The translations under genes were made by a program, and so were the position numbers. From a virus: a DNA stretch of 64,000 nt. Positions 26,096 through 63,846 of this stretch are shown here, piece after piece; positions within the stretch are counted from its first letter, which is position 1, and the number at the start of each line of letters is the position of its first letter. Location of the stretch: the IMG/VR virus record IMGVR_UViG_3300027996_000011, positions 31,728 to 95,727 of that record; one strand, given 5' to 3'. The notes under the pieces are model-generated. The model saw nothing but the letters and a program-made list of their open reading frames with translations. It searched no databases and was not told the DNA's origin.

Positions 26096-27601
26096 ATGTC
26101 AACACATAGGTCCTACTTTAGTAAAAATAACACAATAATAGCTAATAGTTATGTAAATACAGCAAAAAATCCTGTCACACAACTATTTTATGGTAAAAGT
26201 CCATTCCCTACATGCGTTTTTACTGGATTATCAGGTGATAGTTGTAATAATCAGAGTGGTTTTACTAGTACAGTAACAGAAGGTTTTAGTAGATTTATAT
26301 TTGACCTTGATTTGCGTGATTTGTCGGAAAAAGTAAATAATTGTTGTGTCGAGTTGAGTGATGTAGGAACTACTCACACTCTAAAAATGACAAATACATC
26401 TAGTTTTGATGATAAGTTATTAAATGATAAAGTTTTGGTTAATGACACTAGAAGGGCTACTTCTTTTGATTTAATTTTATTTAAATCGGTTAGTGGTCAT
26501 AGTTGGGATGAGGGGGTTGGTTATGACTACCTAGTACCTAACGGTATATTTGAACCAGAATTTGATATGACGTACTCTACACGACCTAGTCATTGGTTTT
26601 CTTGTACAACTCTTTCACATTGGACTTATCCTGGTACATACCTTAACACACTAAGTACTAGTTACGATATCTTAGATACTCAACATTTTGATAATGGTAA
26701 TGAGGATATCAACTTCTCTTCTCAGGCTTTAAAAGATGAGATTAATTTTTTATTAACGGCAAGTACTAGTCTTACTTCCGGTACAACTTATGGTATAGCT
26801 TTTAGTGGGGCGTATGAAAATATAACAGGTATAACAGAATCTTACTCTGTTGGGTTTTTTACAAAGTACACACAGACATTTTTTGAACCTTTTTTAGAGA
26901 CTTTGTGGGATGATGATATTATTGATAATAGAAATAATTTTAATTTATTTAAACTAAATAGGCTTTTTCTTTATGTTTCAGACCACAATGGTCAACCAAT
27001 ATGTTTAGATAAACTTCCTAAATGCCAAATATTTGACTGTAATGGTAATCCAGTTGCTAATTTAATTGTTAAGAAACTAACTTGTGGTGTTTATTATGTG
27101 GAACTAACACTCTCATCCCTACCACCGGGTCAATCAACACCAGTTTTATATGAAGATGTGTGGTCAAGTATTGATATTGGTGGTGTGACACAACCTAATG
27201 TCGAGAATGAGTTTATAATCTATGATAACGCTTTTTCTATAGGACCATCTGCAGCACAACCTAAAGTATATGGGTATTCTGTTTCTGGTATTAAAGAAGA
27301 TGAAAAAATAAGTAGTGGTGAAACAAGGAAAGTCTTTATTTCTACAAGAGTACCTTATACAACAGAAAAACAGGTCTTAGTGGATAATTTACAATACAGG
27401 GTTTATGTTACACAAGGAACAACACAAGTAGAGGTAATTCCATGGTCACAAGTAAACATGGGTAACGAACATAATTACTTACTTATAGACACTGGGTGGA
27501 TGATTCCTAACGAATATTACCTAGACATTAAAGCGACTTCTAATCAACAAGTAGATACTTATAGAAAAGCAATAAAATTCCAAATAATTAATCAATTATG
27601 A
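26096..27601 (+). CDS. Putative virion structural protein (beta-rich)
   Basis: S/T/G-rich, SRFIFDLD, WDEG.G, T.TFFEP.LE..WDD elements; late motif upstream. Confidence 0.6.
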   Translation: MSTHRSYFSKNNTIIANSYVNTAKNPVTQLFYGKSPFPTCVFTGLSGDSCNNQSGFTSTVTEGFSRFIFDLDLRDLSEKVNNCCVELSDVGTTHTLKMTNTSSFDDKLLNDKVLVNDTRRATSFDLILFKSVSGHSWDEGVGYDYLVPNGIFEPEFDMTYSTRPSHWFSCTTLSHWTYPGTYLNTLSTSYDILDTQHFDNGNEDINFSSQALKDEINFLLTASTSLTSGTTYGIAFSGAYENITGITESYSVGFFTKYTQTFFEPFLETLWDDDIIDNRNNFNLFKLNRLFLYVSDHNGQPICLDKLPKCQIFDCNGNPVANLIVKKLTCGVYYVELTLSSLPPGQSTPVLYEDVWSSIDIGGVTQPNVENEFIIYDNAFSIGPSAAQPKVYGYSVSGIKEDEKISSGETRKVFISTRVPYTTEKQVLVDNLQYRVYVTQGTTQVEVIPWSQVNMGNEHNYLLIDTGWMIPNEYYLDIKATSNQQVDTYRKAIKFQIINQL

Positions 27602-27933
27602 AAAAAATAAAAATTAAAGAAAATGAACTAGTAGAATTAATAGAAAAACTAGTAAAAGAAAATATAGGTTTTGCTTCTTCAGCTATAGGTAATGGTAATG
27701 GGCAAAACTTTGGTTTAATGGGTACCCCAACGGCAAAATACAAAGACCTTTTAGAAAAAGAAGATATTGAGGAAGATGATATGGACGACAATGAAAATGA
27801 AGTTAGTGAAGAAACACTAAATCTTAATGTGGATGACGAAACTCAAGATGGGTTAAATCAAGAAGATTATATGGAAAGTGTAAAAGAATCACGATTAATC
27901 TCTAGAATTAGAAAAAATTTAAATAAAAAATAA
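27598..27933 (+). CDS. Acidic protein with KIKIKENELVELIEKLVKE leader (putative head-internal protein)
   Basis: Shared leader type A (see findings). Confidence 0.65.
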   Translation: MKKIKIKENELVELIEKLVKENIGFASSAIGNGNGQNFGLMGTPTAKYKDLLEKEDIEEDDMDDNENEVSEETLNLNVDDETQDGLNQEDYMESVKESRLISRIRKNLNKK

Positions 27934-27945
27934 AAAATAAAAACT

Positions 27946-28008
27946 ATGTGTGATTGTCAAATATGTAAATGTGGTACAAAGTGTGATTGTAGTTGTTGCG
28001 ATTGTTAA
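27946..28008 (+). CDS. Metallothionein-like micropeptide MCDCQICKCGTKCDCSCCDC (20 aa, 9 Cys)
   Basis: ATG27946..TAA28008, A-rich leader TAAAAAATAAAAACT, CxC/CC pattern, last ORF before a terminator. Confidence 0.75.
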   Translation: MCDCQICKCGTKCDCSCCDC

Positions 28009-28027
28009 AACACTAAAATATAGATAT

Positions 28028-28059
28028 AAAAAAAACCACCTAATAAGTGGTTTTTTTTT
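28028..28059. terminator. Bidirectional intrinsic terminator
   Basis: A-run, CCAC, loop, GTGG, T9 between convergent genes. Confidence 0.75.
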
Positions 28060-28061
28060 GT

Positions 28062-28430: not shown

Positions 28431-28452
28431 AAATATATAACTTATTCAGTTA

Positions 28453-30249
28453 CTAGAATCTTTTCAATTCTCTAATATCAAATGTTCTAACTCCATCAAC
28501 AGTGATTCTTCCGTAGAATCTATTGTTCACCATTTTCTTAGCGTATCTAGTCATGATACCTTTGATTGGTGTAAAGTTGAATGGGTTATACATTGTTGGA
28601 GTTAACTGTAATGGTACATACGGTGCGTAAACGTACCCAGTATCCAATAAAGATGTTCCTTTATGTCCAATTAACACTTGGTTAGCTGGGAAGTAAGGGT
28701 CTCTATATACAGTAAATCTTCCTGATAATGTTCCAATTTTCTCAATACCCATGTTATATGAATCTTGTTCTGGTGACGCATTTGATACGTGGAAGTATTC
28801 CAAGTCATCAAAAATTGCAGAAACCTCTGAAGAACATACAATCCAGTTAGCCCCACCTCTTAAAGTAGACTTGTGAATTTGAGCAGAAATTTGGTTTATA
28901 GTTGTAATCAATGTTTGATTCCAATCTTTTTGAGTATATGGAGCTTGACCAGCTGAGAATCTCTTCCAACCGTTGTAGTCCCATCTTAAGTCCCATGCTG
29001 CACCTTTTCTAAGGTCTCTCAAGATTTCTCTATCGATTTCAGCTGCAACTTCTTCAGATAATAAAGCTGTTAATTCAGCTTCAGCATCAATATTATGGAA
29101 TGCAGAAACATCTTGTGCAAGTTCTGGTGACCATTGAGCTCTTAACTTTCTTTCAGTAACAGAAACTGTAACCGCTTGTAAGTCAAAAGAAACTTCTCCC
29201 ATTTGGTCTTCGAATTCAAGACTGTTATACTGTCTCCATTTAGCCGTCATAACATAAGCTGTATCACCTGATGAACCAACATAACCGTCAACTGATGTAC
29301 AAGATACACAAGCTGGACAAGATAAGTCTAATTCAAGGAATACTGTTCCTGTAGAGTCACAAACATCAGTTCTATCAACAATACCAAATCCGTATTTTTG
29401 TGTAACTACACGGAATAAGATTGCTGATTCAGCAGCGTAAGTAACACCAGTAGTTACTGAACCACCTGCAGTTCCGTCAGTATCACAACAGTTAATTATT
29501 GTTGAGTTAGATACAACTAATGAAGATAAAAAGTCTTCATTATCCATCTCGTTACCTTTAGCGTCAGTTAATTTACCAGCTCCAGTAGTACTAAATCCAG
29601 TTAAAGAAACAACAATTGTTCTTCTACAAGCAACGTGATAAGTTGCCCAATTTGCAGCGTCAGTAACTAATTGGTTTCCTGACCATGCGTAAGGATATAA
29701 TACTTGTTGTGCTACAGTAAAACTTCCTTTTGAGTAGTCATATAAACCATCATTTGCTTCTTGTGGTGCATTTCCAGCGTAAAAATCATCATATAAAGAT
29801 GATGATGCTGCTGAGAATGAAGCTCCTGGAGTTTGTTGATACCCATCAGCTACCGTAGTACCTTCATTTTGAGGTGCTCCGTAAGGTGAGAATTGTACTC
29901 CTGTTGCAGCGTAAGCTGCGATTTTAGGTACAAAGTAAAATAACTTACCAATTGGTAAATTCATAGCTTGTACAGAAACGATGTCGTTTGCTAATAATTT
30001 AGAGAATACTCTCCTAATTATTGGAAAAACGACTGTTTCGAATGAACCTGAATCAGCAGCTGTAGTAGCTTCGTTGATTAGGTGTGTTGCTTGGTTTTCA
30101 TATAGCTGAGCTATATTTTCTTTAACGTGTCCTTTAAGACCGTCTAGGAATCCAAGTTTGTTCCATTTGTTTAAGGTATCTTCTTTAATAACTTTAAGGT
30201 GTTTTAACCCAATGTTACCGACCATACCTGATTCTAATAGTGCTCCCAT
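28453..30249 (-). CDS. Major capsid protein (T4 gp23-like) with Cys-rich insertion
   Basis: PIIRRVF...DIVSVQAM..P.G, RKLRAQWSPELAQD, DAEAELTALLSEE..AEIDREI, YAPYVPL, GIMTRYA. Confidence 0.96.
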   Translation of the reverse strand: MGALLESGMVGNIGLKHLKVIKEDTLNKWNKLGFLDGLKGHVKENIAQLYENQATHLINEATTAADSGSFETVVFPIIRRVFSKLLANDIVSVQAMNLPIGKLFYFVPKIAAYAATGVQFSPYGAPQNEGTTVADGYQQTPGASFSAASSSLYDDFYAGNAPQEANDGLYDYSKGSFTVAQQVLYPYAWSGNQLVTDAANWATYHVACRRTIVVSLTGFSTTGAGKLTDAKGNEMDNEDFLSSLVVSNSTIINCCDTDGTAGGSVTTGVTYAAESAILFRVVTQKYGFGIVDRTDVCDSTGTVFLELDLSCPACVSCTSVDGYVGSSGDTAYVMTAKWRQYNSLEFEDQMGEVSFDLQAVTVSVTERKLRAQWSPELAQDVSAFHNIDAEAELTALLSEEVAAEIDREILRDLRKGAAWDLRWDYNGWKRFSAGQAPYTQKDWNQTLITTINQISAQIHKSTLRGGANWIVCSSEVSAIFDDLEYFHVSNASPEQDSYNMGIEKIGTLSGRFTVYRDPYFPANQVLIGHKGTSLLDTGYVYAPYVPLQLTPTMYNPFNFTPIKGIMTRYAKKMVNNRFYGRITVDGVRTFDIRELKRF

Positions 30250-30275: not shown

Positions 30276-31751
30276 TTATTTAATTTTAGACATTAAGTCT
30301 TTCATCCTACTAAATTGTGGATTTTCGTAAACTTTTGATTCTAACAGTTTACCTCCACTAGTAGGAGTCTTAGTAATTTTCTTTTCCACTGACTCAGCAA
30401 TTGTTTTTGTAGGTTTAACTACTTCCTGAGTTAGTTCTTCTTTGATTACCTTGTACAAATCTTTAGAACCTTTTAATGAATTAACTCCATCAAAACGTCT
30501 TAAAACTTTGATTTTTTCCTGCTTGGTAGTTGAATGTTCTGTAAATAGACGTGTTACGTAAGCTAAATTTGAATTAAACACACCTACTTCATTCAGTTTA
30601 TCTTTAAAAGTTGTTAATGCTTTCTTATAATCAGAATTTTTAACTTTTAAAGTTTCTACCTCTTCTTTAAGAAGATTGTAGGACTTTCTAATACGACTTT
30701 CACCTAGGTTACGATTTGGTGTAATAGCTTTTCTAATACCAGAAGGTTTATGTTTACCACCAGACTCTCTTCCCAACCCTAAAGTTCTTGAAGCTTCTGT
30801 TGTATCATACTTTCTAGTACCTCTTGCCATTCTTGCTCTGGTTTTTAAAGACATTTTATCGTCTTCATGACCATGTTCTCCACCTAACATATCAGCCTCT
30901 CTATCCAAGTAACCTTGGTTAGAGTGTCCTTTATGGTTTTTGAGTCCATAGTCACCTTCTTCCATTTCGTGTTCACCTTCTCCCATTTCATCTTCAGGAC
31001 CTAAATCCATATCAGACTCTTCCCCCATTCTTTGTTTATTAATATCCGAATCTACACCGACTACTTCTGAATCACTACCGTCAAAGTCATCTCTGTCTTC
31101 GTGGTCTTCTTCTTCATAGTCTTCAGACAATTCAATTTCATAAACAACATCATCCATTTCGTCCATTTCTTTGTAACCTTCGTCCATGTTATCCATTTCC
31201 TCCATGTCCATTTCGTCCATTTTGTCCATTTCTTCCATGTCCATTTCGTCCATGTCCATTTCCTTAATTGATTTTTTCATTGTTTTTGATTTTTTTTCTT
31301 CGTCTAGTTTAATGATGTATTCAGTGTCTGTAGTAGTATCAGTCAACTCAATTTCTTCATCATCTTTTTGGATAATGATTCCATCTTCGTCTCCCATTGC
31401 TTTAAATACTTTTAACACTTCTTCATCGGATGCTAATGTTAAGTCTAGAGGTGGCAGTTCAGGTAACTCTACGTCGTCTGTCTCGTCCTCAATATCAAGT
31501 TCCATACTATCTAACACATCTAAATCCATTTCAGGTTCATCACCTTCCATTTCATCATCAACATCGATAATATCAACTTCTTCTTCTTCTTCTTGCTCCT
31601 TAAGGTAATCGTCTTCGTTTAACGATTCTTTTACTAATTCTTGAATTTCTTCCTTCATAGTTGAAGAAAGTATTTCTTTTGCATTAGACTTCATAGTTTC
31701 TTCCAACTGTTCCGCCTCGAGCAACGCTTTTTCTAAAATTGATTCACTCAC
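30276..31751 (-). CDS. Prohead core/scaffold protein (gp22-like)
   Basis: Between protease and capsid genes; very acidic coiled coil with many (I/L)-x-E sites; likely GTG start at 31751 (MSESILEKALLEA). Confidence 0.8.
   Translation of the reverse strand: MSESILEKALLEAEQLEETMKSNAKEILSSTMKEEIQELVKESLNEDDYLKEQEEEEEVDIIDVDDEMEGDEPEMDLDVLDSMELDIEDETDDVELPELPPLDLTLASDEEVLKVFKAMGDEDGIIIQKDDEEIELTDTTTDTEYIIKLDEEKKSKTMKKSIKEMDMDEMDMEEMDKMDEMDMEEMDNMDEGYKEMDEMDDVVYEIELSEDYEEEDHEDRDDFDGSDSEVVGVDSDINKQRMGEESDMDLGPEDEMGEGEHEMEEGDYGLKNHKGHSNQGYLDREADMLGGEHGHEDDKMSLKTRARMARGTRKYDTTEASRTLGLGRESGGKHKPSGIRKAITPNRNLGESRIRKSYNLLKEEVETLKVKNSDYKKALTTFKDKLNEVGVFNSNLAYVTRLFTEHSTTKQEKIKVLRRFDGVNSLKGSKDLYKVIKEELTQEVVKPTKTIAESVEKKITKTPTSGGKLLESKVYENPQFSRMKDLMSKIK
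31150..31265 (-). repeat. Coding tandem repeat (MDEMDMEEMD[K/N]) in scaffold
   Basis: Repeated tccat/gtccatttc units; 33-nt unit present twice plus partial copies. Confidence 0.8.
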
Positions 31752-31814
31752 GTTTTTTTTATTTTTTTTAAAAAGTTTATTATCAAAAAGCCACAAGCAT
31801 AAATGCGGTTTTAT

Positions 31815-31869: not shown

Positions 31870-32568
31870 TTATCTATTTAAGAAATTGTCCAACTTAGAC
31901 ATCATAGATAAAGATTTATTTAATTTTTGTTCTGGAGCTTTAGAAGATTCCAAAACTTCACCAGTTTCATCTACGCTATCTGGTGATTCTGTCTCTTGGA
32001 ATAGGTAAGAGCCTGGTGTTGAGGGGGATGATACTAAGTCAAAACAAATTAACTCAAAGTCTTCTTGGACTTGGTTGTAGTCTCCGTTTTTTGTTAGTGA
32101 ACCAACACCTCTAGAAGATATACCTAGAGTAACACCCTGCCTTAATAAATTAGCTGCTTGGTCACCAACACATGAAATAACCCCTTCTTTAATATATCCT
32201 GGTGATGTAAGTAGCTTAAGTTTACCAATTAATCTATTTCCATCCCACCAAGTTTCTGTGATTATATGAGAAGCTCTATCTAAGTCTATTAAAGATGATT
32301 CTGGATGATTAAGTTCAGATATCGCACCACCTTTTTTTATTACTTCTTGGTATCTTTCGTTTTCTCTTCTTAGTATTTGTTCTGGATATATTCTTCCGTT
32401 CCTGTTTGGGGTGTCGTATTTTTGTAAAATAGCTAACATATAAATCTCCCCACCGAAATCAGCATTTTTCATTTCTGAAATAATAGCTTTATTTTCGTCT
32501 GGTGATATGTACCCATCATGTTCTACTAAAATACCATGACCACTTTCTTTGGCTTCTAAAACTCTCAT
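31870..32568 (-). CDS. Prohead protease (T4 gp21-like)
   Basis: NRNGRIYP, SELNHP, SH.I, GISSRGVGS, FDLVSSPS. Confidence 0.95.
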   Translation of the reverse strand: MRVLEAKESGHGILVEHDGYISPDENKAIISEMKNADFGGEIYMLAILQKYDTPNRNGRIYPEQILRRENERYQEVIKKGGAISELNHPESSLIDLDRASHIITETWWDGNRLIGKLKLLTSPGYIKEGVISCVGDQAANLLRQGVTLGISSRGVGSLTKNGDYNQVQEDFELICFDLVSSPSTPGSYLFQETESPDSVDETGEVLESSKAPEQKLNKSLSMMSKLDNFLNR

Positions 32569-33865: not shown

Positions 33866-35701
33866 TTAATCCTTTAATAATGTGTCAACCTCATCATTAA
33901 TACTATCAATATTATTTTTTGTTCTATTAAATAACTCATCTAAACCATCTTTAGATAACCCTCTACCTTCTAAAATTAAAGGTAGTTCAGAGTCAACATT
34001 AAAACCTTCAGCAGCCGCTACAGGGTCGGTTATCTCTTCACCAGCACCAGGAGCTTCAGTTTCTGAGTCACCCATATCAAAATTAGCGTCTTCTTCACTT
34101 CCCATATCTAATCCTGGTTCCTCACCTTCTGAATCAGTAGTATTTGTTACGGTCGGTGGTTCTCCATATAGTTTATCAACAGTATTAAATAACCCAGTCT
34201 TTTTAATTACATCACCCGTACTTTCTAATTCTGTAGATACTGCTTTTTCAAATCTTTGTTGTTGTAAGTCTAATTTAATTTCTTCATCACTCATACCTAA
34301 AATAAACTTTTTTGCCCATGTAGCTGAAACTGGTGCTATACCACTTCCTGGGTCACCCACAGCATCTTTATATAATGTTATTTTAGTTTGCCATTGTTCT
34401 AGTTTTAGTAGTTCTGATTGGGTTGATGGGTTAGTTAGACCTAAGGAAAAGTTTTCTAGTTCATCCTCGAACCCTAAAACATATAAATGAATTATAGCTA
34501 TTTTATTTAACTCTTGGATGATAGCTTTCTGAATCCTATTTATGGTTCTTGCGAATCTAATATCTAAAAGAGCTAGATTTTTACCTTCACCCACCACCTC
34601 CTCAAAACCTAAAAACGCTTTTGGTATTCTAAGAGAAGCTAGTAATTTTTTTTGTATATATTCTATATCTGCAATTTCACTTAAATTTGTTGCTCCAGGT
34701 AAAGTTTCTATAGGACTTGGAGCTGCTTGGTCTCTTACTGGTATAAAATAATCTTGGTCCACAGCCATTTGATTCATTCTTAAGTCCACATTTCCATTTT
34801 GTGGGTCTACTACTGGGTCCCTTTTAAACTTATTGGCTACTTTACCAATATAAGCTTCGACATCTTTGTCATCCATATTACCAACAAAGACTTTAAAAAC
34901 TCTTCTTTCTGGAGCTCTAGATGTTCTATATACTAACATAGCATCCTCAGCTAACAACAACTGTTTCCATATTCTTCTAGCTTTTTCCAACATAGAGGTA
35001 CCATAAGGTAATCTTCTATCATCACCTAAAAGTCTAAAATGTGCTATCTCCCAAGAATTAAATGTTAAGTCTTTTTCTCTCCATTTAAATTCTACTTGGT
35101 GAGCTTTGGCATCACTATTATCCATTTGGTTTAAGTAACTATGACCTTCTGTTCTTTCCATTTCAATATTAGGTAGCTGGTTGCACCCTATAACTCCTTT
35201 TTCTGGGTCAATTTTTAAATAAACAAAATTATCTCCGTATTTACAAGCATTACGAATCCACATGATTAAATTTGTGTCAACGTCTAATATGTTATTAAAT
35301 AAATCACCTAGAATTGACTTTATTCTAGTGGATTCAGACTGTATAGATAAAATGTAACCTTTTTCTGACGGGGTTGTGGATTCTTCTGCATATATATCCA
35401 AAGCAGCAGATATTTCCGGTGTAAACTCCATGGACTCATAGTCATAATAAGAAGCTAATCTAGTTGGTTCGTAATAAATAGATTTAGTATATAGTTCATT
35501 ATCTATTTTTTGCCATTGACTTGATAGGTACATGGATTGTTGCATTTGCAACTTCTTCTCCTCATAGTCTTTTTTAGAATCAGTTTTTAGTATTTCTTGT
35601 GAACCAAGTTTAAATTTTTGGAATGTTGGTTCTTGAGCTGTAGGTCCAGCAGGACCAAATAATTTTCCTAGTCTTTGATATATTGTTAAGTTTTCTGCCA
35701 T
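33866..35701 (-). CDS. Portal protein (T4 gp20-like)
   Basis: Y..M...PEI..A.D....E, LLAEDAMLVYRTSRAPERRVF...VGN, DYFIP.R, IETLPG..NL, DIEY..KKL. Confidence 0.95.
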   Translation of the reverse strand: MAENLTIYQRLGKLFGPAGPTAQEPTFQKFKLGSQEILKTDSKKDYEEKKLQMQQSMYLSSQWQKIDNELYTKSIYYEPTRLASYYDYESMEFTPEISAALDIYAEESTTPSEKGYILSIQSESTRIKSILGDLFNNILDVDTNLIMWIRNACKYGDNFVYLKIDPEKGVIGCNQLPNIEMERTEGHSYLNQMDNSDAKAHQVEFKWREKDLTFNSWEIAHFRLLGDDRRLPYGTSMLEKARRIWKQLLLAEDAMLVYRTSRAPERRVFKVFVGNMDDKDVEAYIGKVANKFKRDPVVDPQNGNVDLRMNQMAVDQDYFIPVRDQAAPSPIETLPGATNLSEIADIEYIQKKLLASLRIPKAFLGFEEVVGEGKNLALLDIRFARTINRIQKAIIQELNKIAIIHLYVLGFEDELENFSLGLTNPSTQSELLKLEQWQTKITLYKDAVGDPGSGIAPVSATWAKKFILGMSDEEIKLDLQQQRFEKAVSTELESTGDVIKKTGLFNTVDKLYGEPPTVTNTTDSEGEEPGLDMGSEEDANFDMGDSETEAPGAGEEITDPVAAAEGFNVDSELPLILEGRGLSKDGLDELFNRTKNNIDSINDEVDTLLKD

Positions 35702-40230: not shown

Positions 40231-41379
40231 TTATTTTATAAACCCATTGGTTAGTATCCAAACCTTTTTATTTTTACTTTCTAATATTATTTTACCAGAA
40301 TCTGTTTTTCTTTTAAACTTAAAAGATTTATTTTCTTTTAAAAACTTTTCACAACTAAGTTCTTGTTCTACAGTCTTATATTTTTTTTTTAATTTTTTTG
40401 TCTCCTGTAAGTGTTTAATTTTAGATTTTAAGTATTGTTCTGCTGTATTAGGTGAGGACTTTGTTTTTTTACCAGTCTCAATATAAGATTCTAGTAAATT
40501 ACCAACCCTTTCTTTTAAAGACTCCATAGCTACTTCTTCATCATCCATATCAAGGTCCATACTATCTTCATCACCAACCTCTGTATCTAAATCCATATCT
40601 TCGTCACCCATATCGATATCAACATCAACATCTTCTTCATCACCATAAGCTGCTTCATCCTCATCAAATCTATCTAAAACATCGTCTTTGTCGTCTTCAT
40701 CTAAATTGTCTAAATCTACAGCTGATATTATAGAATTTAAAACATACTTAATGTCAGCACTCCCTAACTCCTCCTCAACGTCTCTAAGTTTTTGTCCTAA
40801 TTTACCAGTTAGTTTTTGGATTGGTTTCATAAACCCTTCCATTTCTTCTTCATCACCACCCTCTAAATCAACATCTAAATCTTCTTCTTCATCATCCATA
40901 TCCATATCCAAATCTTCATCTTCATCTCCCATGTCAAGGTCCATATCCACATCCACAGATTCTTCATCACCACCTTCATCTGGGACATTTAATACAAATT
41001 TTTCTTGTTCATCCATTTCACTTTCATCATACATAGACATTCCAGTACCTTCATTATATTCTTCATTTAAAGGTTTAAATATTAGATTCATTCTTTTTAA
41101 AGCTTTACCGTAACTTTTAAACCTGTCTCTTTTTTTGTTTTGGGGTCCACTAACGTATTCTAGTTCGGATTCGTTAATACCAGATTTTAGATAATACCCG
41201 TCACGTTCTAGTACTATAGAATAAACTCGTCCATCCGCACCTTTTTTAGTGAAATGATTTGTTTCTACCTGTAATTCTTTATTTCTAGTTGTTTCTCCAA
41301 AACGTGCTATTTCCATTATTCTTTGTACTTTAGCATCTCCTTGTAATTTTTCACTACCTATTGGTTTTAATCCTGACAT
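40231..41379 (-). CDS. Acidic prohead-core-like protein
   Basis: QRIMEIA leader, long D/E/M low-complexity tracts. Confidence 0.6.
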   Translation of the reverse strand: MSGLKPIGSEKLQGDAKVQRIMEIARFGETTRNKELQVETNHFTKKGADGRVYSIVLERDGYYLKSGINESELEYVSGPQNKKRDRFKSYGKALKRMNLIFKPLNEEYNEGTGMSMYDESEMDEQEKFVLNVPDEGGDEESVDVDMDLDMGDEDEDLDMDMDDEEEDLDVDLEGGDEEEMEGFMKPIQKLTGKLGQKLRDVEEELGSADIKYVLNSIISAVDLDNLDEDDKDDVLDRFDEDEAAYGDEEDVDVDIDMGDEDMDLDTEVGDEDSMDLDMDDEEVAMESLKERVGNLLESYIETGKKTKSSPNTAEQYLKSKIKHLQETKKLKKKYKTVEQELSCEKFLKENKSFKFKRKTDSGKIILESKNKKVWILTNGFIK

Positions 41380-47434: not shown

Positions 47435-48535
47435 ATGAAATTAATAATAACACAAAAACAGTCTAGGCGACTAATCAAAGAAGCTTTAGGTGTGCCTAAA
47501 TCTATTGAGTTTTGGGTTGACACGTTTTCTGAAGTTATTAATGATGGTTTAATGATGTTATTATCTTCTGATGATAAAGAAGTTTTTTTTACTGGAAATG
47601 ACATACAAGAAAAAGCTGTTTCTGGTGGCTGGAATAGTTCTAATGACAAATTTTTAGATTTTCCATTAGCAGAACCACAATTAAACCTAAAGTTAAATAT
47701 TGTACCTGATGAAAGTATAAATAGTGGTGATGATTATATTGATGCAGCTTCTTTTGATACTAGTGGAATTGATTTAATTGATGCTACTTTTGATGATGGT
47801 AAAACTTTACCTTTGGTAGTTGGTGGGATTATAAATATAGAAATTAATGTCCCCGAATCTTCATATGAAAATGGTTCATTTGTAGAACTTTATAATTCTG
47901 AAATAAAACCATATGCTGAATCTATTTTGTTTCATGAACTAACTCATGTTTATGAATTTTATAAAAGAATACTGAGTAATTCGGCAAAACCTAACTTTGA
48001 ACAGGTTGCTAATCTGACCCAGATGATGAATAAAATGGGTTCGGTTGATGATTGGGATGAGTTAATGTTTATGATTTATTTACATTTGAGTTTTGAACTT
48101 AATGCTAGAATATCTGAAGTTTATGGTTTATTAAGAAATAAAAATATTAGCTCTAAAGAAGAGTTTATAGAATTTTTAAAGACTTCTAGAGCTTTTTCTT
48201 ACGCTAAAAGACTTAATAACTTTAGTGCTGAAAAGTTTTTCGAAGATTTTGAGCTTTCTCAAGAAACAATAGATAGAGTTAGAGAGTACGATGGTAAAAA
48301 AACACCAATAGATGAAATAAAGAATGTGGTATTAGACCAACTAATTCAGAACTGGTCGGTAACATATGAAGATTTCTTAAAAGATTTTTCTGCTGATGAA
48401 ACTATAAAAATACCTAACTTACCTAGTAAAGTATTATCCTCACCACAAAACTTTCTTAAATTCTGGGAAAAACGCTTTAATAAAGCGGGACAAGATTCTT
48501 TAAGAAAAATTTCACGTTTATATTCGGCCATTTAA
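47435..48535 (+). CDS. Zincin-motif protein with KLIITQKQSRRLIKE leader
   Basis: HELTH plus downstream ELNAR; late motif upstream. Confidence 0.65.
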   Translation: MKLIITQKQSRRLIKEALGVPKSIEFWVDTFSEVINDGLMMLLSSDDKEVFFTGNDIQEKAVSGGWNSSNDKFLDFPLAEPQLNLKLNIVPDESINSGDDYIDAASFDTSGIDLIDATFDDGKTLPLVVGGIINIEINVPESSYENGSFVELYNSEIKPYAESILFHELTHVYEFYKRILSNSAKPNFEQVANLTQMMNKMGSVDDWDELMFMIYLHLSFELNARISEVYGLLRNKNISSKEEFIEFLKTSRAFSYAKRLNNFSAEKFFEDFELSQETIDRVREYDGKKTPIDEIKNVVLDQLIQNWSVTYEDFLKDFSADETIKIPNLPSKVLSSPQNFLKFWEKRFNKAGQDSLRKISRLYSAI

Positions 48536-48554: not shown

Positions 48555-48558
48555 TAGT

Positions 48559-53118: not shown

Positions 53119-55229
53119 TATTGTCCTGGTCTTAATTTACAATTATCATCACCTCCACCAGCGGCCGCAGCAGTATCGTATATTTTCTTTAAATTATCAA
53201 AACCATCTTTTCCTTTACAATACTCAACAAAATCTGAATTAGTTTTTACGCCCGCATTGTTTAATGCTATCCCAACATCCTTACTTACAAGTGTACCACC
53301 TATCTTACAACCACCATCATTACAATTACAATCATCACTACCAGATTTACAACCAGTACCACATTTTGCTAAAGGAATAGTTACTTCAAAATCACCATCA
53401 TCATATTTTATACTTTGTGGGTACTTTAATAGATACTTCTTATTTTCTTCTACTATTTCCATCCATGTATCATAATTTACGTCTGACGTGTCTGGGTCTA
53501 AATAAGGAAGTTTATTTATTTTTGTTTTAATGTCATCCCAGGTTGCTCCTTTGAATAGAGCAGCCCACTGATTCATATTTTGCATGTCATCGTATAAACT
53601 AGCGTTAAAGTTAGTTTCGTAGTAATCGGAAATTTGTGACATTTTTAAGATATCGGTTGCGTCTTTGTCCAGTATATTTTCTACAACCTCCTCGTCTGGT
53701 CTAAAAGTACCAGCCATATCCAAAATTACTTTGGTTATAGAGGGGACACCTAGTTCAAATTTATATTCACCAACAGTGTAATCTACTTCGTCATCACCTA
53801 AAATTGTCCACCAATTACCACCCGCGGCATTATTATTTAGTGTTGCGTATAAAGCTTCAGCTAACATTTTTACAGTATTTTCATCTTGTATAGAATACCT
53901 TTTTAAAAATGCTCTACTAAATTCTACATCATTACAGGTTACAACTGTGCTTGATTTATCAGCTTCTTGTGGAGTCCCGATTACATTTCTATATAATTTA
54001 CCTGTTAATGCATCACTAACCTTATCTGTACCCACACAATTTGAGAATGACTCAATAACTGATTTAAACCATTGCACCGGTGACAGTTGTGCTATATCTT
54101 TATCCCTTATACTACGATAGGTACCAAATATCCCCACCCCTATCATTAGAGCATAGGCTGAATCCCATACTTTATCTTTTGTTTTAATATTTCTGTTAAA
54201 TATTTTCGTAACATAGTTATACAAACCTTTTAAGACTGCACCTCCCATAACATAGTTATAGAATCCGGAAAGTAGTATTTCACCAGTTATTACTTTAAAC
54301 CACTGCTTATTTCCTACTACATTACCATACTTAATATTTCTAAACACTTTCATTGGGTCTACCGCTTTAGTTAAAAAACTAAAGTATTTTTCTAATGATT
54401 CACCTTCTTTACTTAGTAGTATACCTAAGTCATTTATTAACCTACTAGTTTTTTCCAACCCTAGAGTGTCTGCTACAGTTTCTATTAACTCATCGATTGT
54501 ATCTTTGTATTGAGCATATTTAACTCTTTTTGTAAAATCTGAACTAGACATTAAAGCTTTTTTTATAATTTTGGTAAATTGTGGGTTTGCTCCCATTAAA
54601 GCTATTATTGCTTTTTTAAGTCCGTCTGTTAACGGACCTCCTTTTAAGAAGGATTGTAGACTTCTCATAAATTCTTCTACAGTACTTATGGAACCATTTG
54701 TTACCTGCTTAAAGTATGATTCTAGTTCGTTAGTTGGTAGTCTTAGAAATGGTGGTATGGAGTAATATTCAGTATTATTCTCCACAATCTCTCTGTAAGT
54801 TTTTTCGTCTATTAATTGGTCTGGCTGGTTTGGAACTACTCGGTAGTAGTCCGTTTCTATTGCAATTTTTTCTCCCTGTTTGGTTGCTATCGTGGCTGAG
54901 TCCTTACCAAGTTCCTCACCTAACTCATTAAAATATCTAGTTATTGTCTTAATTTCAGTTCCTTTTTGTATTATCTCATTCCATTCGTCTTTACCCTTAG
55001 CAAAAATAATCAAGTCATCAAATTTGTTTAAGAAACTAGGTATCACACCATCAGTTTCAAAACCTAAATCATCCATGATTTTTACTAGTCCTTGTGGTGT
55101 TATAGCATCATCTAAAACTTTATTAATAATTTTAGCCTCAACTTGTTCCGATAATATATTACTAGAACTATTAACCATTATTTGGTTGATTCTATATAAC
55201 TCTTCGTTTAATGTTTTTTTACCTCGCAT
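53118..55229 (-). CDS. Large protein with leader type B, hydrophobic segments and Cys-rich C-terminus
   Basis: LNEELYRINQIM...ILSEQ; ALMIGVGIFG; CGTGCKSGSDDCNCNDGGC. Confidence 0.65.
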   Translation of the reverse strand: MRGKKTLNEELYRINQIMVNSSSNILSEQVEAKIINKVLDDAITPQGLVKIMDDLGFETDGVIPSFLNKFDDLIIFAKGKDEWNEIIQKGTEIKTITRYFNELGEELGKDSATIATKQGEKIAIETDYYRVVPNQPDQLIDEKTYREIVENNTEYYSIPPFLRLPTNELESYFKQVTNGSISTVEEFMRSLQSFLKGGPLTDGLKKAIIALMGANPQFTKIIKKALMSSSDFTKRVKYAQYKDTIDELIETVADTLGLEKTSRLINDLGILLSKEGESLEKYFSFLTKAVDPMKVFRNIKYGNVVGNKQWFKVITGEILLSGFYNYVMGGAVLKGLYNYVTKIFNRNIKTKDKVWDSAYALMIGVGIFGTYRSIRDKDIAQLSPVQWFKSVIESFSNCVGTDKVSDALTGKLYRNVIGTPQEADKSSTVVTCNDVEFSRAFLKRYSIQDENTVKMLAEALYATLNNNAAGGNWWTILGDDEVDYTVGEYKFELGVPSITKVILDMAGTFRPDEEVVENILDKDATDILKMSQISDYYETNFNASLYDDMQNMNQWAALFKGATWDDIKTKINKLPYLDPDTSDVNYDTWMEIVEENKKYLLKYPQSIKYDDGDFEVTIPLAKCGTGCKSGSDDCNCNDGGCKIGGTLVSKDVGIALNNAGVKTNSDFVEYCKGKDGFDNLKKIYDTAAAAGGGDDNCKLRPGQ

Positions 55230-57672
55230 ACTTCAGTTTTAATTGTTCTTCTCTTTGATTAATTTCTTCTTTCTTATTTATAAATACTTGGTCAGTATCC
55301 ATTAATAAATCTATCATCGTATCTAAATCATCCTCGTTACCACTATAAATACCTTTTAGTATTTTTTCAAGTTCTATTTCTCCTTTTTCTAAGTCATTGT
55401 CACCAAGTGTGAACAACCAATATTCCAATATTTCTTCATCTTCTGCATGGGCTTCTATTGTAGCTCTCCATAAACCATTAATATTATCAGTATAAGCGTT
55501 ATTTATTTCTTCAACAATTTCATTCACCTCTACTATTGAGAGGTCCTCACCCTCAACATTTACGGTAATTTCAGTACCATCATCAGATACGGTTACATCA
55601 CCATCAATTTCTTGGTTTAATATATCCTCTAATTCTCGTACTTCATCTAGGTTTTTACTCATAAAATTCTTTTGTAGGACAGCAAATAAAGTACATGTAG
55701 CACTTTCACCTATTTGTTCGGAGTCCAACTTAATTTTTATTGTTTTTAGTCCCACTATAGGTGCAGTATTTGATGCGACTGCAAGTGTGTCCAATAACAC
55801 ATTTTTACCATTTATATTTAAAGTTAAATCGAAACAACTTACTGTGTTTTTTATAGCAACACCCGCTAAAGTCGCTAAAATCATTTTAAATGGTACACCT
55901 AAATTATATTTCATTTTACCAACAAAACTTCTCCAAGCTTTTCTATTTGCAAATAATACTGATGACAGTTCATCTGCCCCTTTACTAAACTCAGTATAAG
56001 GTAAATTTTGTGTAGATTTTTTAAATGCTGGATTAAGTCTTCTTAAAGCATGAAATTCAACAACGTCTAGTGTTGAGAATCTTTTTAGAAAATCTATACT
56101 GGTTTTAGTATCTATATCCAACAATTTCATCATTTCCTCTTTGTTTTCTTTTAAAGCCTTAAACACTACCTGGCCATTTTTACCATATTTCGCAACCATC
56201 GATTTTTTACCATTTTCTAAACCATATGTTAAAATTTTAGCTAATTTTTTATCACTAATTTTAGCCACTTTAATAATATTTGATAGTTTTAGTACTTTTA
56301 AGAATGGTATAGTTTCTAATGCTATACCTAACACACCCCAGGCTGTTTGTCCTTGATGTAAGTCAAAAGCACCACTTGCTACACCCATTCCTGTAGATAA
56401 AGCTATTAGTGCAACCCCAACCGGTGCACCAACACCTGTAGCGGTAAGTACGAAACCTACGACTACCATCGCAACTGAAACCATATCCCACCAAAATTGA
56501 ATTTCGTCTTCTTCTTCTATTGTCATTTCTCTTTGTTCGAACTCACTTTCTGTTTTATCCATCCAGTCACTTTTTTCCTTTTCACTCATCGAGTCCCAAT
56601 TTTCTGGTCTTTCCTCGATAAACGCAAATACATCTCCAAATTTTTCCCTAATGTCTACCTCTTCATTTGATAGGGATTTTTTTCCAACACCAAACCCACA
56701 ATTTGTTTGTAGTAACATCTCAGCAAAATTTCTCATATCTTTAAAATAACGTCTATGTTGTTCTTCGTTAAGTGGGTAAGATTCAGATTCTTCTTTTTTA
56801 CCTCCAACCATATAAGCCCACTGTCCTGAGTTATAATCTTTTTCTTGGTTGTTAGTTCTATTCTTTATATAATTGGATACTAACTTTAGTACGTCATAAT
56901 CGTTAGAATCGGATAATTTTTTTTGTAATGCTTGTAATGTTTGTTCTTTACCACTATACCAATCTTTTTTATTAACACCTAAATCTTTTCCTGTTTTTGT
57001 GGAATAAGCTTTTTGTAGGTACATTAGGACTTTTGGTTTTACATTTTCTGGTATTTCAGCATCACCCACCAGATAAGGTCTACAAAAATATTTTGTATTC
57101 ATTTTTTCTCCACCCTCAAAAGCAAAAAGTGAGGGTATAACAACTTGACTGTCATCAACCTCAAACCCTGACATTTCATGTGTACCATCTAAAGCTAAAC
57201 CTGTTTTACAATTTATTTTTTTACCTGTTTGTCGATTAAAACAAACCTCTACTTCACCCAACATTACTGTTTTAATACCTGGTATGTACTGGTATAGTGC
57301 TTGTCCTTCAGCAATAGCATTATTTCTAAAAAAACCTTCTTTAGCGTTAAAGGGGTATAGATAACCTTGTAAATATATTTTAACTCTGGATGGTAATTTT
57401 TCATAGGTTGTATGAGGAATAACCGAAAATGGTTGTATGCCTAACTTTGTCAAAGCATTTTTAACCCCACTATCTAAATTTTGCCAAGCTTTCATAGCTT
57501 CTTCTTTAGTTCCACCATAACTTTTGATTGGTTCACTGGCTTTTACCGTAAGGTAAGAAAATTGAGGTTCTGTTTGTTCTTTTATTCTTTGAGCACGAAA
57601 TTCCATAATAGTTTCAGCTATAAACTTTACCATTTCGTGATGTGGTAATTGTATTTTTTTCTTTTTTACCAT
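55219..57672 (-). CDS. Large protein with membrane-inserting hydrophobic hairpin (putative ejection/channel protein)
   Basis: WWDMVSVAMVVVGFVLTATGVGAPVGVALIALSTGMGVASG...GVLGIALETIPFLK; no signal peptide. Confidence 0.6.
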   Translation of the reverse strand: MVKKKKIQLPHHEMVKFIAETIMEFRAQRIKEQTEPQFSYLTVKASEPIKSYGGTKEEAMKAWQNLDSGVKNALTKLGIQPFSVIPHTTYEKLPSRVKIYLQGYLYPFNAKEGFFRNNAIAEGQALYQYIPGIKTVMLGEVEVCFNRQTGKKINCKTGLALDGTHEMSGFEVDDSQVVIPSLFAFEGGEKMNTKYFCRPYLVGDAEIPENVKPKVLMYLQKAYSTKTGKDLGVNKKDWYSGKEQTLQALQKKLSDSNDYDVLKLVSNYIKNRTNNQEKDYNSGQWAYMVGGKKEESESYPLNEEQHRRYFKDMRNFAEMLLQTNCGFGVGKKSLSNEEVDIREKFGDVFAFIEERPENWDSMSEKEKSDWMDKTESEFEQREMTIEEEDEIQFWWDMVSVAMVVVGFVLTATGVGAPVGVALIALSTGMGVASGAFDLHQGQTAWGVLGIALETIPFLKVLKLSNIIKVAKISDKKLAKILTYGLENGKKSMVAKYGKNGQVVFKALKENKEEMMKLLDIDTKTSIDFLKRFSTLDVVEFHALRRLNPAFKKSTQNLPYTEFSKGADELSSVLFANRKAWRSFVGKMKYNLGVPFKMILATLAGVAIKNTVSCFDLTLNINGKNVLLDTLAVASNTAPIVGLKTIKIKLDSEQIGESATCTLFAVLQKNFMSKNLDEVRELEDILNQEIDGDVTVSDDGTEITVNVEGEDLSIVEVNEIVEEINNAYTDNINGLWRATIEAHAEDEEILEYWLFTLGDNDLEKGEIELEKILKGIYSGNEDDLDTMIDLLMDTDQVFINKKEEINQREEQLKLKYAR

Positions 57673-58367
57673 AGTGGGTTTCCTTTTCCTCTTGTTGTTT
57701 GGTAAGAGTCACCCCATTTAGTATTTGCTACTTGGTTGGCTACTCCTCTGGCTATACCAGAATCCCAAACACCAACTGAAGCTGTACCAGCACCAGCACC
57801 ATCATCTGACTCACCACTCTCAGTCCCTTCCTGTTCACCCAGTTCATACCCTAATTCCATATTATATTCATCAGAAGAGTCCATATAACTATCTTCAGGA
57901 CCATCACTATTAAAATTATAACCTTTTTTAATTTTAGAGTAGTTAGTTGGGGCTTCTTCAAAACCTTCACCATCTAATTCGGGTTGTGAACCTAAGGCTC
58001 CTTTACTATTAAAATCGTAACTTGACACGTCATCTGTGTCTGGGTATCCACCCTGTAGTCCAGACATGATATCCTCCTCAATAGTACCACCACAAGACAT
58101 TTGTTTTTCTTCTACTTCATCATAATCAAAAGAATTTACAACACTATCTATGTTGTCAGCCATTTGGGCGATTTTAGATTCCATCCAGTCATCTAATTCT
58201 TCACCTTTATCTAACCTATCATACATACTCTGAGATTTTTTAGCTATATTGTAAAGCTGACTTTTAGCCATATATGACTTTTGGTGGTTACCTTCTTTTA
58301 ATGGTTCTTTCTGTGAAATACCCATTATTTCTTTTACACGATTTATTTGTTCTTGTATTTTTGGCAT
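57666..58367 (-). CDS. Acidic head-associated-type protein with leader type B
   Basis: IQEQINRVKEIMG; MAKSQL...L..WMESKI module seen in T4-like phage hypothetical proteins; late motif upstream. Confidence 0.65.
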   Translation of the reverse strand: MPKIQEQINRVKEIMGISQKEPLKEGNHQKSYMAKSQLYNIAKKSQSMYDRLDKGEELDDWMESKIAQMADNIDSVVNSFDYDEVEEKQMSCGGTIEEDIMSGLQGGYPDTDDVSSYDFNSKGALGSQPELDGEGFEEAPTNYSKIKKGYNFNSDGPEDSYMDSSDEYNMELGYELGEQEGTESGESDDGAGAGTASVGVWDSGIARGVANQVANTKWGDSYQTTRGKGNPLW

Positions 58368-58380
58368 AACTAGTTCTTTA

Positions 58381-58388
58381 TATAAATA
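58381..58388 (-). promoter_or_regulatory. Putative late promoter TATTTATA (four-gene operon 58367-51736)
   Basis: 13 nt before ATG58367. Confidence 0.65.
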
Positions 58389-58423
58389 TAAATATACCGA
58401 TATTGGTGTTAAAGCCTATGTTT

Positions 58424-58702: not shown

Positions 58703-58749
58703 AATATAAAATCTTTGTTGATTAAATATTAGGTTAAGTGTGAAAAGTA

Positions 58750-59163
58750 CTAGAGTCTACGTGATTTTAACCAGAAAATTTCTCTACCAGCTCTAGTTTC
58801 TAAAGCTCTTAGTTTTTGTTTAGATTTTCTTAGTTCTGAATTTTCGTTTTTTTCCAGGTCGGCCATTAAAAAAGAAACAAACTCTAACATATCTGCATTT
58901 AATTCTTCTACGTATTGTACTCTAGATTGCAGTTGTGTAATTTGTTCTTCCATTAAACCAACTATTTCTTCTGGTGAAAGAATTTGTTCTATTTCATCTT
59001 CCAAATCAGATAAAGTATTTTCATCTTCTAAATCCTCATCACCCATATCTACATCCAGGTCATCCATATTAAATAAAGTTTCATCAGCATCCATATCCTG
59101 TTCTAATATGTTTTTGATAACTTTTGTTAATTCTTCTTCCGATAGTGTTATTTTTTTTGCCAT
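58750..59163 (-). CDS. Acidic coiled-coil protein with leader type A
   Basis: KKITLSEEELTKVIKNILEQ; late motif upstream. Confidence 0.7.
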   Translation of the reverse strand: MAKKITLSEEELTKVIKNILEQDMDADETLFNMDDLDVDMGDEDLEDENTLSDLEDEIEQILSPEEIVGLMEEQITQLQSRVQYVEELNADMLEFVSFLMADLEKNENSELRKSKQKLRALETRAGREIFWLKSRRL

Positions 59164-59198
59164 AATCTTTTTTTTATATAAATATACAGATAATTATA

Positions 59199-61913: not shown

Positions 61914-61967
61914 AGTTAATTTTTTATAATAGTAAGAATAGTTTATTCCATAATAAATAGACTTTTA

Positions 61968-61999
61968 GTTGTGTAAGTCCTTTTTTTTGTTTATCTTTG
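61968..61999 (+). promoter_or_regulatory. Bacteroidota housekeeping-sigma promoter
   Basis: GTTG, N20, TATCTTTG (61992-99). Confidence 0.6.
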
Positions 62000-62095
62000 T
62001 AGTACAAACAAAGGACATAATGTAACCACCAAGATAAATTTTACGTATACTATAATATAACAACCAAGTCTCTAACCAATTAAAATAAAAATAAA

Positions 62096-62605
62096 ATGAA
62101 AAACCTACTCCTAACACTTCTAAGTATCTTAACTCTAACAGTTTATGGTCAAGATTTTACTACTTGTACAAAATTAGATTCTTTAATCTGGGAAAAAGTT
62201 AACGAGTATAGAACAACAGAAGATGCAATAACTAAAGGTTATGGTACACCAAATACTATAACTAAGTTTGGTTTAGGTGATATGAGAGAATATTGTTATG
62301 ACGTAACAAAGATGAACGCTAAACTTTCATTCGAGACAATGAGACACTCAACTTACGAAGAACTTACACCTACAGCTAATGGTGAGTGTTTATATAAGTT
62401 AGTAAGAAATAAATGTATATTGGACTTATCAGATGATGAAACTTTGGAGTATTTAGCTTCTAAGGTAGTTAATGGTTGGATTAATTCCTGGACTCACCGT
62501 ACAGTTATTGGTTGGTTGGATAGAGTTGAGTCTACTGTAACTACGGTATTTCATTTCCCTACTGAGGGAGGTACTCATATGAATGTTACATTTCATGCAA
62601 AATAA
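62096..62605 (+). CDS. Exported CAP/SCP-like protein
   Basis: Signal peptide ending VYG-Q; KVNEYR, MRHS, GE, VNGWINSWTHR CAP motifs. Confidence 0.7.
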   Translation: MKNLLLTLLSILTLTVYGQDFTTCTKLDSLIWEKVNEYRTTEDAITKGYGTPNTITKFGLGDMREYCYDVTKMNAKLSFETMRHSTYEELTPTANGECLYKLVRNKCILDLSDDETLEYLASKVVNGWINSWTHRTVIGWLDRVESTVTTVFHFPTEGGTHMNVTFHAK

Positions 62606-62627
62606 AAAAGACCCGAAAGGGTCTTTT
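62604..62627. terminator. Bidirectional intrinsic terminator
   Basis: A6-GACCC-GAAA-GGGTC-T4. Confidence 0.88.
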
Positions 62628-62652
62628 ATTATTTTATTAAAAATGATTTTTA

Positions 62653-63846
62653 CTATTGTAATCCAATAACATAACTAAATATGTTTGATTTTCCTGATTT
62701 AACCACCTTATCACCTTCTATAGAAGTTTTAATAATAATAGTTTTAATCTTATCTTTTTTATCTACATTTAACATTAAATCTATAAATTGGTCTGACTGA
62801 TTTTGACCTTCAACTTTCCAGTTTACAACATAATTATCAAATCCTGGATGTCCTTTAGCTTTTAATCCTTTGTTAACAGCCATCATAAAGTTATTACCTC
62901 TATCAAAAGCTAATTTTTGGTTTTTACCTTCATTACCTTCAGCGTATCCAGTATCACCTTTACCATCACTGTTAGGTAATTTTTCTGACCCCCAGTTAGC
63001 ACTTGCACCAGCTTGTAATGTAAACACGTCTATATCAACTTCCGGTGGGAACATTTGGGAAATCTCATTAACAGCTTTAGTTACAAGTTTAGAATCTGGT
63101 GTAGAATCTCCCGCTCTATAATCTGTGTCATATTTTCCAGTTGCCTCATACCCTTTTTCTACAACATCTTCAGTACCTGTTTCTGCTGTTTGTTTCATAC
63201 CTTTTGTTAAAGAGTAGATTACTAATAACCCACCTGGGTCATTAGGTCCTTGCATAAAGTTTAAGAACCCACCATCATCCATAGTCTCTACATCATATAT
63301 TTCACGGTCATTTGCATATGCTGTCATATTAAAACCATTTAAGTACGTTACTAATGTACTAGGTGGTGTACTATTATTCATCGCTCTCCTACCGTCAGTC
63401 TTAACCTGACTTTGCATTACATTACCATGTGTTGCTATTGCACCACCCTTAAGATTAACTGGTAATGTTTTTTGGTCAACAAAAAGTGATTGTCCTTGCT
63501 CTTTAATAGCTCTTAAGAATGCTTTAGCACCCGTCTTTATATTACCACCACCCATATGTTGTACTATAGCTGATATAATATTTTCCGGTATTAACTTTCT
63601 ACCTTTACTACCACCTATTGTAACCGGGAATGTCACAAATCTAGCTGACTGCATTAATGTTTGTAGTTCATTGTATCCTGGTATTGCCTTAAGACCTCTA
63701 ATGCCTTTTTTTCTTAAATACTTATCGATTTTCTCTCCAGCATCTTTAACCATACCTTCTGATTTTATTTCGTAAGCTTCACTGATTAAATCTAAACCCA
63801 TTATTTCACGGTTTCTGTTTATTTCAACTAATATATTCTTTTCCAT
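62653..63846 (-). CDS. Late protein with leader type B and possible OmpA-C-like domain
   Basis: ILVEINRNREIMGLDLISE-A; LQAGAS...NQKLAFDRGNN resembles N..LS..RA. Confidence 0.6.
   Translation of the reverse strand: MEKNILVEINRNREIMGLDLISEAYEIKSEGMVKDAGEKIDKYLRKKGIRGLKAIPGYNELQTLMQSARFVTFPVTIGGSKGRKLIPENIISAIVQHMGGGNIKTGAKAFLRAIKEQGQSLFVDQKTLPVNLKGGAIATHGNVMQSQVKTDGRRAMNNSTPPSTLVTYLNGFNMTAYANDREIYDVETMDDGGFLNFMQGPNDPGGLLVIYSLTKGMKQTAETGTEDVVEKGYEATGKYDTDYRAGDSTPDSKLVTKAVNEISQMFPPEVDIDVFTLQAGASANWGSEKLPNSDGKGDTGYAEGNEGKNQKLAFDRGNNFMMAVNKGLKAKGHPGFDNYVVNWKVEGQNQSDQFIDLMLNVDKKDKIKTIIIKTSIEGDKVVKSGKSNIFSYVIGLQ

Follow-up and report, generated by a model that had tools for sequence, protein, structure and literature searches.

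In bacteriophage T4, N-terminal targeting propeptides of 10–20 residues are removed by gp21 (PMC5694885), and the internal proteins are diverse, with the targeting sequence alone being conserved (PMC3012670). In the phiKZ-like giant phages (SPN3US, phiKZ, and 201phi2-1), a prohead protease related to that of T4 processes many proteins of the inner head, gp53 and gp54, which are paralogues, have an identical N-terminus, and the propeptides are considered to direct proteins into the prohead (PMC5694885). For DarB of phage P1, the N-terminal ~30 residues suffice to direct a foreign protein into the capsid (PMC9024508). Here, we examined a 64,000-nt stretch of viral DNA (IMG/VR record IMGVR_UViG_3300027996_000011, positions 31,728–95,727; hereafter, the window), in which several otherwise unrelated proteins begin with shared short peptides, or leaders, that an initial annotation had interpreted as address tags for the capsid. 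Comparison of the sequences supports that annotation in part: diverse proteins that evolve fast carry a modular address tag, and the phage has head-assembly genes of the T4 type. The leaders have been swapped among proteins, are under selection at the protein level, are rich in the motif of the head protease, and are tied to units that hold structural genes. By analogy with T4, we slightly favour the view that they are portable capsid-targeting propeptides.

The resemblance to T4 extends over several features. As with the tag of IPI, IPII, and IPIII and with the Alt and gp24 propeptides, unrelated, fast-evolving proteins have a short N-terminal peptide in common that ends in (L/I)-x-E, as judged from the sequence. 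The head genes correspond as well, with a protease of the gp21 family, a scaffold resembling gp22, and a capsid protein of the gp23 type whose propeptide site is homologous. Unlike in T4, there are three classes of leader, of 16–28 residues, with no evident sequence likeness to the T4 tag, and dozens of proteins per genome bear them (33 of 391 open reading frames [ORFs] in G003, a complete relative), versus a handful in T4; on the contig that holds the window, 9 of 107 ORFs do so. In addition, the putative tags described here are found at C-termini and between modules as well, rather than strictly at the N-terminus and once per protein. Propeptides of the phiKZ-like phages are mostly longer than 100 residues and are cut at (A/S/G)-x-E, whereas the leaders here are 16–28 residues long and carry (I/L/V)-x-E as in T4; neither phiKZ-like feature was found. 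The DarB signal of P1 belongs to one protein, with no tag family and no tie to a protease motif, whereas the leaders here occur on many proteins. Encapsulin cargo-loading peptides are also short, lie at either terminus of unrelated cargo, bind the inside of an HK97-fold shell, and are not cleaved. Encapsulins are non-viral compartments without a portal, terminase, or tail, whereas the shell here is that of a tailed phage, which encodes a Portal_T4 protein, a large terminase, and an S77 maturation protease. A full-text literature search on the motif strings and related terms returned no paper describing such leaders.

Source contig and related genomes

The window forms the right-hand end (64 kb) of a viral contig of 95.7 kb (G+C content ~31%) from an uncultured, marine, T4-related giant phage. 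Genes were called on the whole contig (G000) and on four whole relatives (G001–G004), and these five genomes are the set compared below. Because G003 (296,330 bp) is rated complete, the contig is regarded as a partial genome; by analogy with the closest relatives, it would be a fragment of roughly 28% of the genome of an abundant uncultured giant-phage lineage. With the capsid protein of the window, tblastn matched gp23-type capsid proteins. At least 598 IMG/VR contigs, G003 among them, encode the same type of capsid protein, the best 80 of these at 64–76% identity, and the nearest cultured phages by this protein are Microcystis phage Mel-JY01 and Flavobacterium phage immuto (~42% identity).

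Three classes of shared leader

All eight peptides listed in the initial annotation, which had sorted them into two families (types A and B), were located as quoted and translate at their start codons (Table 1). Sharing is genuine for six of them and fails for those starting at 57672 and 41379. Moreover, the former type A splits in two, because the peptide at 47435 belongs to a class of its own. The three classes can be written as KLTESDL..IVKRVIKE (type A), ..EEI.RIKE(I/L)MG...(I/L/V)xE (type B), and MKIIITESQ..LIKE, with the looser form MK(I/L)IIT(E/Q)xQ..LIKE (third class). Loose regular expressions for type A, the third class, and type B matched 22, 17, and 14 times, respectively, in the five genomes, versus 0, 0, and 0.24 times in shuffled proteome sets. 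The match lay within the first 25 residues in 20 of 22, 16 of 17, and 9 of 14 cases, respectively (45/53 in total). When the motif was masked, the 53 bearers fell into 31 clusters without BLAST relation to one another.

Profiles were also built within the contig by leaving out one leader at a time and were scored against 2140 shuffled proteins. The leaders at 27598, 59163, 58367, and 63846 were recovered (≤12/2140 shuffled proteins scored as high); those at 47435 and 57672 were not. The peptide at 57672 (KKIQLPHHEMVKFIAE), originally listed as type A, was recovered neither in the leave-one-out test nor by a profile made from the other genomes only. The KVQRIMEIA segment at 41379, once considered a partial type B leader, lies in an N-terminus that is conserved in five orthologues and is common to no other family. 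The leader at 59163 is kept in the G001 and G002 orthologues, and orthologues of the 233-aa protein keep the leader and conserve the C-terminal domain while the linker between them varies in length. The NEELYR core of the leader at 55229 recurs on the leader of an unrelated 410-aa family.

The leaders had been described as N-terminal; this holds for most copies of the motif, but C-terminal copies and copies between modules exist, so that the position is not strict. Upstream of the window, a 199-aa acidic repeat protein (G000:C1:11658-12257, −) has a type A motif at residues 28–47 and a type B-like helix at its C-terminus. In the same upstream region, the 151-aa family encoded at 28439-28894 (+) of the contig retains a type B helix at its C-terminus in four genomes.

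Table 1. Leaders, head-assembly genes, and upstream motifs in the window (positions count from the first nucleotide of the window)
Feature	Position	Strand	Evidence
Type A leader, 21 aa, ending LVKE, of a 111-aa acidic protein (27598-27933)	27598..27660	+	2/2140 shuffles
Type A leader, 21 aa, ending ILE, of a 137-aa acidic protein (58750-59163)	59101..59163	−	Leave-one-out score 11.1; 0/2140 shuffles
Third-class leader MKLIITQKQSRRLIKE of the 366-aa HExxH protein (47435-48535)	47435..47482	+	Class with 17 copies vs 0 in shuffles
Type B leader, 25 aa, ending LKE, of a 233-aa protein (57666-58367)	58293..58367	−	1/2140 shuffles; regular expression
Type B leader, 23 aa, ending ISE, of a 397-aa protein (62653-63846)	63778..63846	−	12/2140 shuffles; regular expression
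Type B leader, 28 aa, ending LSE, of a 703-aa protein (53118-55229)	55146..55229	−	Regular expression match; leave-one-out marginal (128/2140)
817-aa hypervariable protein with hydrophobic hairpin; N-terminus at best degenerate type A	55219..57672	−	Not recovered by profiles
382-aa very acidic conserved protein; KVQRIMEIA segment is no shared leader	40231..41379	−	Type B core profile scores about as in shuffled proteins
T4 gp21-type prohead protease	31870..32568	−	Pfam Peptidase_S77, E 5.7e-25; PHROG head maturation protease, E 5e-45
Acidic scaffold-like protein in the gp22 position	30276..31796	−	T4-like gene order
Predicted 60-aa propeptide of the gp23-type major capsid protein (28453-30249)	30070..30249	−	Ends LINE60/A
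T4-type portal protein	33866..35701	−	Pfam Portal_T4, E 1.3e-77
TATTTAT copies	26073-26079, 47423-47429	+	Upstream motif
TATTTAT copies	58388-58394, 59178-59184, 63867-63873, 31816-31822, 32583-32589, 35727-35733	−	Upstream motif

Exchange, selection, and spread of the leaders

The leaders are portable, interchangeable, and common to unrelated proteins. A paralogue of the 111-aa protein encoded upstream on the contig has a type B leader, and the identity between the two begins at the Asn directly after (V/L)KE; homologues of this protein from metagenomes show the same exchange of types A and B. In a 148-aa paralogue family of G003, ten members carry a third-class leader and one carries type A. 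At the position of the 817-aa gene, G001 has a type A-like start and G002 a type B leader, and at the position of the 397-aa protein, G002 encodes a 615-aa product with the same leader on an otherwise barely related body. Leaders can also be present or absent: a family characterised by a YAFDWDDN motif, whose gene lies upstream of the window, begins with a leader in G000 and G001 and without one in G003 and G004, and a domain that is leaderless in pelagiphage podoviruses bears a type A leader in relatives. The initial annotation had raised the possibility of two docking sites; this was unsupported, and the finding that a given core can carry either type A or type B argues for one destination. 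Two further candidates were rejected. The notion that type B is a copy of the scaffold C-terminus was unsupported, since 79–92 of 2140 shuffled proteins scored equally, so that the likeness is not above chance, and a pairing of types A and B on one protein was not seen, the other motif being absent from the best 150 type A and the best 120 type B matches.

Selection acts on the leader as a peptide and not as DNA. Among ten type A leaders of G003, the codon is also the same at 60% of the sites with identical residues, whereas codon usage predicts 48%. Conservation across 90 distinct homologues of the 111-aa protein is highest in the leader, at 3.79 bits per position versus 1.8 in the tail. A repeated DNA cassette was therefore rejected as the general cause of sharing, because synonymous sites are nearly randomised; one pair of G003 leaders is nearly identical in DNA.

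A type A profile built from 35 leaders was searched against 1.84 billion cluster representatives and matched 8,569 protein clusters at E ≤ 0.001, 60 of them at E ≤ 1e-10. On rescoring of the best 150 of these 8,569 matches, the first copy lay within the first 25 residues in 148. Additional copies among the best 150 are mostly internal (58), sometimes with their own Met-Lys-Lys, and the multi-copy proteins look, from their sequences, like fused leader-module units. Almost none of the bodies of the type A matches were recognised by Pfam, and their source records name them hypothetical. A word-based search with the type B profile gave 240 matches, with the motif being N-terminal in 119 of the best 120; some were named peptidoglycan-binding proteins by their source. 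G003 also contains dense arrays of small leader genes (L089-L090, ~107–128 kb; L096, 238–246 kb), among them a run of the 148-aa paralogues, an arrangement reminiscent of the variable internal-protein locus of T4-type phages.

Head-assembly genes and the protease motif

The genes expected of a T4-type head are arranged as in T4: portal, two small genes, protease, scaffold-like gene, and capsid. The window also encodes a large terminase. In an alignment of the protease with T4 gp21, His85 and Ser140 (T4 numbering), which we take to be the catalytic residues, are invariant. The annotation had likened the leader ends to the capsid propeptide site LINE60-A. When the five capsid proteins are aligned with T4 gp23, its cleavage site FLTE/AEIGG falls on LINE60/AT in all of them, and the capsid site is homologous to that of T4. 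The capsid propeptide also holds KVIKE23, and the scaffold-like protein contains KVIKE and has 3.2 (I/L)xE per 100 aa, versus a background of 1.37.

The C-terminus of the scaffold-like protein, YENPQF(S/L)RMKDLMSKI (30279-30338, −), is unchanged in the five genomes, in which the scaffolds otherwise differ. At the C-terminus of the protease lies a conserved helix, K(S/T).x(L/M)M..L..FL, which T4 gp21 lacks. These two C-terminal elements may be docking elements of the prohead.

That the leaders end in (I/L/V)-x-E, as originally proposed, was upheld. The site lies 4–12 residues after the core in nine of nine N-terminal type B leaders, whereas a 21-residue window of other proteins holds it with a probability of 0.37. 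Among the best 114 type A matches, the terminal Glu is conserved in ≥90%. Each leader contains about two (I/L/V)xE motifs, twice the number in within-leader shuffles, and the observed count was reached by 0 of 2000 shuffles; because the copies are related to one another, these samples are not independent. Three different N-termini occur in the HExxH family, and each closes with (I/L)xE immediately ahead of a conserved GVP. An extended version of the site, (K/R)(V/I/L)(I/L)xE, was observed 102 times versus 22.8 expected and is also present in the capsid propeptide and the scaffold.

TATTTAT upstream of leader and structural genes

TATTTAT is the most enriched upstream word in the gene set, occurring before 134 of 885 genes versus 7.1 expected. 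The proposed placement of leader genes in units marked by this motif was corroborated: TATTTAT lies ahead of 33 of 53 leader genes, compared with 182 of the 832 remaining genes (Fisher p 1.3e-9). The copies at 59178-59184, 58388-58394, and 63867-63873 accompany the leader genes starting at 59163, 58367, and 63846, respectively. Genes for the scaffold, protease, portal, terminase, and sheath are likewise preceded by the motif, whereas a 20-kb glycan locus has no copy of it.

Cargo proteins and neighbouring genes

The labels that the annotation gave to the cargo held in part: the HExxH motif, the membrane hairpin, and the acidic tails are present, whereas the OmpA-like label is a weak lead. In searches of the eight listed proteins against Pfam and PHROGs, the only match was a weak one to a metalloprotease for the HExxH protein. 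This 366-aa protein has 91 homologues, in which HExxH is invariant and the distant members bear other N-termini. Its AlphaFold2 model, made from 39 sequences, has a mean pLDDT of 85.7; residues 1–17, with values below 50, are modelled as a detached helix, and from about residue 20 onwards the chain is confidently folded. For this one modelled leader, the prediction thus places the leader apart from the folded cargo. No known fold matched the model in Foldseek and wide VIA-align comparisons (best Z 4.5), so that the label “zincin” refers to the HExxH motif alone. The gene lies in a protein quality-control cluster (43330-49059), together with those for Hsp70/DnaK (full-length, E 1.5e-257), a ClpB/ClpC-like protein that is a double AAA+ ATPase, and an SprT-like metalloprotease; a glutaredoxin gene is present at 42810-43259.

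Within conserved synteny, the cargo is hypervariable, a trait also seen in the internal proteins of T4 (PMC3012670). The flanks of the operon at 51736-59163 are conserved in the syntenic regions G001:83471-90000 and G002:49919-54672, and the 600–800-aa genes inside it have diverged beyond BLAST, whereas the capsid proteins of the compared genomes are 74–76% identical. The 817-aa product of this operon has a Gly/Ala-rich hydrophobic hairpin at residues 391–436, and a search for related loci with this protein found no relative. Between the hypervariable operon and a conserved block at ~50.4–51.3 kb, ARAGORN predicted a tmRNA gene (51299-51707, +) with the tag AKLATLGLVRETSTVAVA; at the same position, G002 has a tRNA-like remnant, which appears in the gene list as a spurious ORF. 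Further along the window, a thioredoxin gene (E 1.3e-27) is accompanied by two small genes, the products of which have N-termini resembling lipoprotein or signal peptides (MKKLFLTSAIALSTLFASAQ, MKNLLLTLLSILTLTVYGQ); the three loci, at 61599-61913 (−), 59639-60064 (−), and 62096-62605 (+), are conserved in G001 and G002.

Possible function of the leaders

Because the leaders end in the cutting motif of the head protease, loading into the capsid and trimming there are probable. Under the T4-like reading, to which we give slightly better than even chances, a leader of 16–28 residues would form an amphipathic helix at the start of the protein, or sometimes before an internal module, and would bind the assembling prohead core, either the scaffold or the inner face of the shell. 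The leader-bearing protein would be enclosed while the gp23-type shell closes, and the gp21-type serine protease would then cleave behind the (I/L/V)-x-E that terminates the leader, and probably at sites within the leader too. The cargo would be freed inside the head, and at least part of it would exit with the DNA. Core binding, enclosure, cleavage, and ejection are all modelled here on T4.

Several observations weigh against this reading. Copies of the motif are C-terminal and internal as well, whereas the T4 targeting sequence is strictly N-terminal, and 63 of the best 150 type A matches hold two or three copies. With ~8% of the genes of G003 bearing leaders, the cargo would be large. The shuffle tests for (I/L/V)xE use related copies, and the motif could partly be a by-product of a K/E-rich amphipathic helix. 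TATTTAT often stands just 10–14 nt before the start codon; because many copies are so placed, we regard it as a putative promoter, presumably of late timing. The HExxH gene lies in the DnaK/ClpB-like/SprT-like cluster, and a role in protein quality control would fit it too. Finally, no cultured phage carrying such leaders was found: the type A profile had no match in Flavobacterium phage immuto or Microcystis phage Mel-JY01, and no leader-carrying relative emerged when 50,697 phage records were searched by tblastn with three queries, namely the 111-aa protein, the 233-aa protein, and a canonical type A protein.

The multiple copies and their placement would be explained if the leaders were uncleaved docking or oligomerisation helices that tie many proteins to a shared partner, or to each other, in the virion or an assembly intermediate, in the manner of scaffold helices or of the cargo peptides of encapsulins and without being cut off. 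The hydrophobic stripe of the leaders is typical of helix-helix packing, the 151-aa family retains its type B helix at the C-terminus, and the scaffold and protease both have conserved C-terminal helices. We nevertheless consider this account unlikely, though one of some weight, since it leaves unexplained the near-invariant Glu at the junction, the identity of paralogues that starts exactly after this residue, and the approximately two protease motifs in each of the three classes.

Alternatively, the leader could be a tag for a partner other than the capsid, such as the phage's own DnaK/ClpB-like chaperones, a host complex, or a membrane, with the likeness to the protease site being incidental. 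The tie between cargo and head is indirect, the Hsp70 and ClpB-like genes adjoin the HExxH leader gene, and some cargo has peptidoglycan-binding domains or membrane segments. However, leader genes are enriched in units that hold structural genes and adjoin the capsid gene in many relatives, the extended site is common to the leaders, the capsid propeptide, and the scaffold, and the helices are too charged for membrane insertion; a non-capsid partner therefore seems improbable to us. Chance resemblance among K/E/I-rich amphipathic N-termini in an AT-rich genome, which the annotation had itself named as a possible refutation, would fit the peptides at 57672 and 41379, which are no better than chance, but is scarcely credible for the other six, given the near-absence of the three motifs from shuffled sets and the 8,569 clusters matched by the type A profile, with nearly all of the best 150 starting at residue 1.

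A broader form of the capsid-targeting reading can be stated more tentatively, at a little under even odds: in an abundant clade of uncultured aquatic giant phages, a small code of interchangeable leaders loads a large, hypervariable set of proteins, which the protease frees for delivery with the DNA. This set would account for ~8% of the gene content of a 296-kb genome and, worldwide, for over 8,500 clusters, including some leader-module-leader-module polyproteins. If this is true, the internal-protein principle of T4 has been scaled up ten- to a hundred-fold, and thousands of unannotated proteins are injected, among which factors that counter defences or act on the envelope are likely. Should the tags indeed load cargo, they would offer a sequence-only way to list the proteins injected by very common aquatic phages, and they would supply compact, naturally occurring tags with which foreign proteins could be packed into large capsids. 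The internal-protein system of T4 would then be the small end of a much wider strategy.

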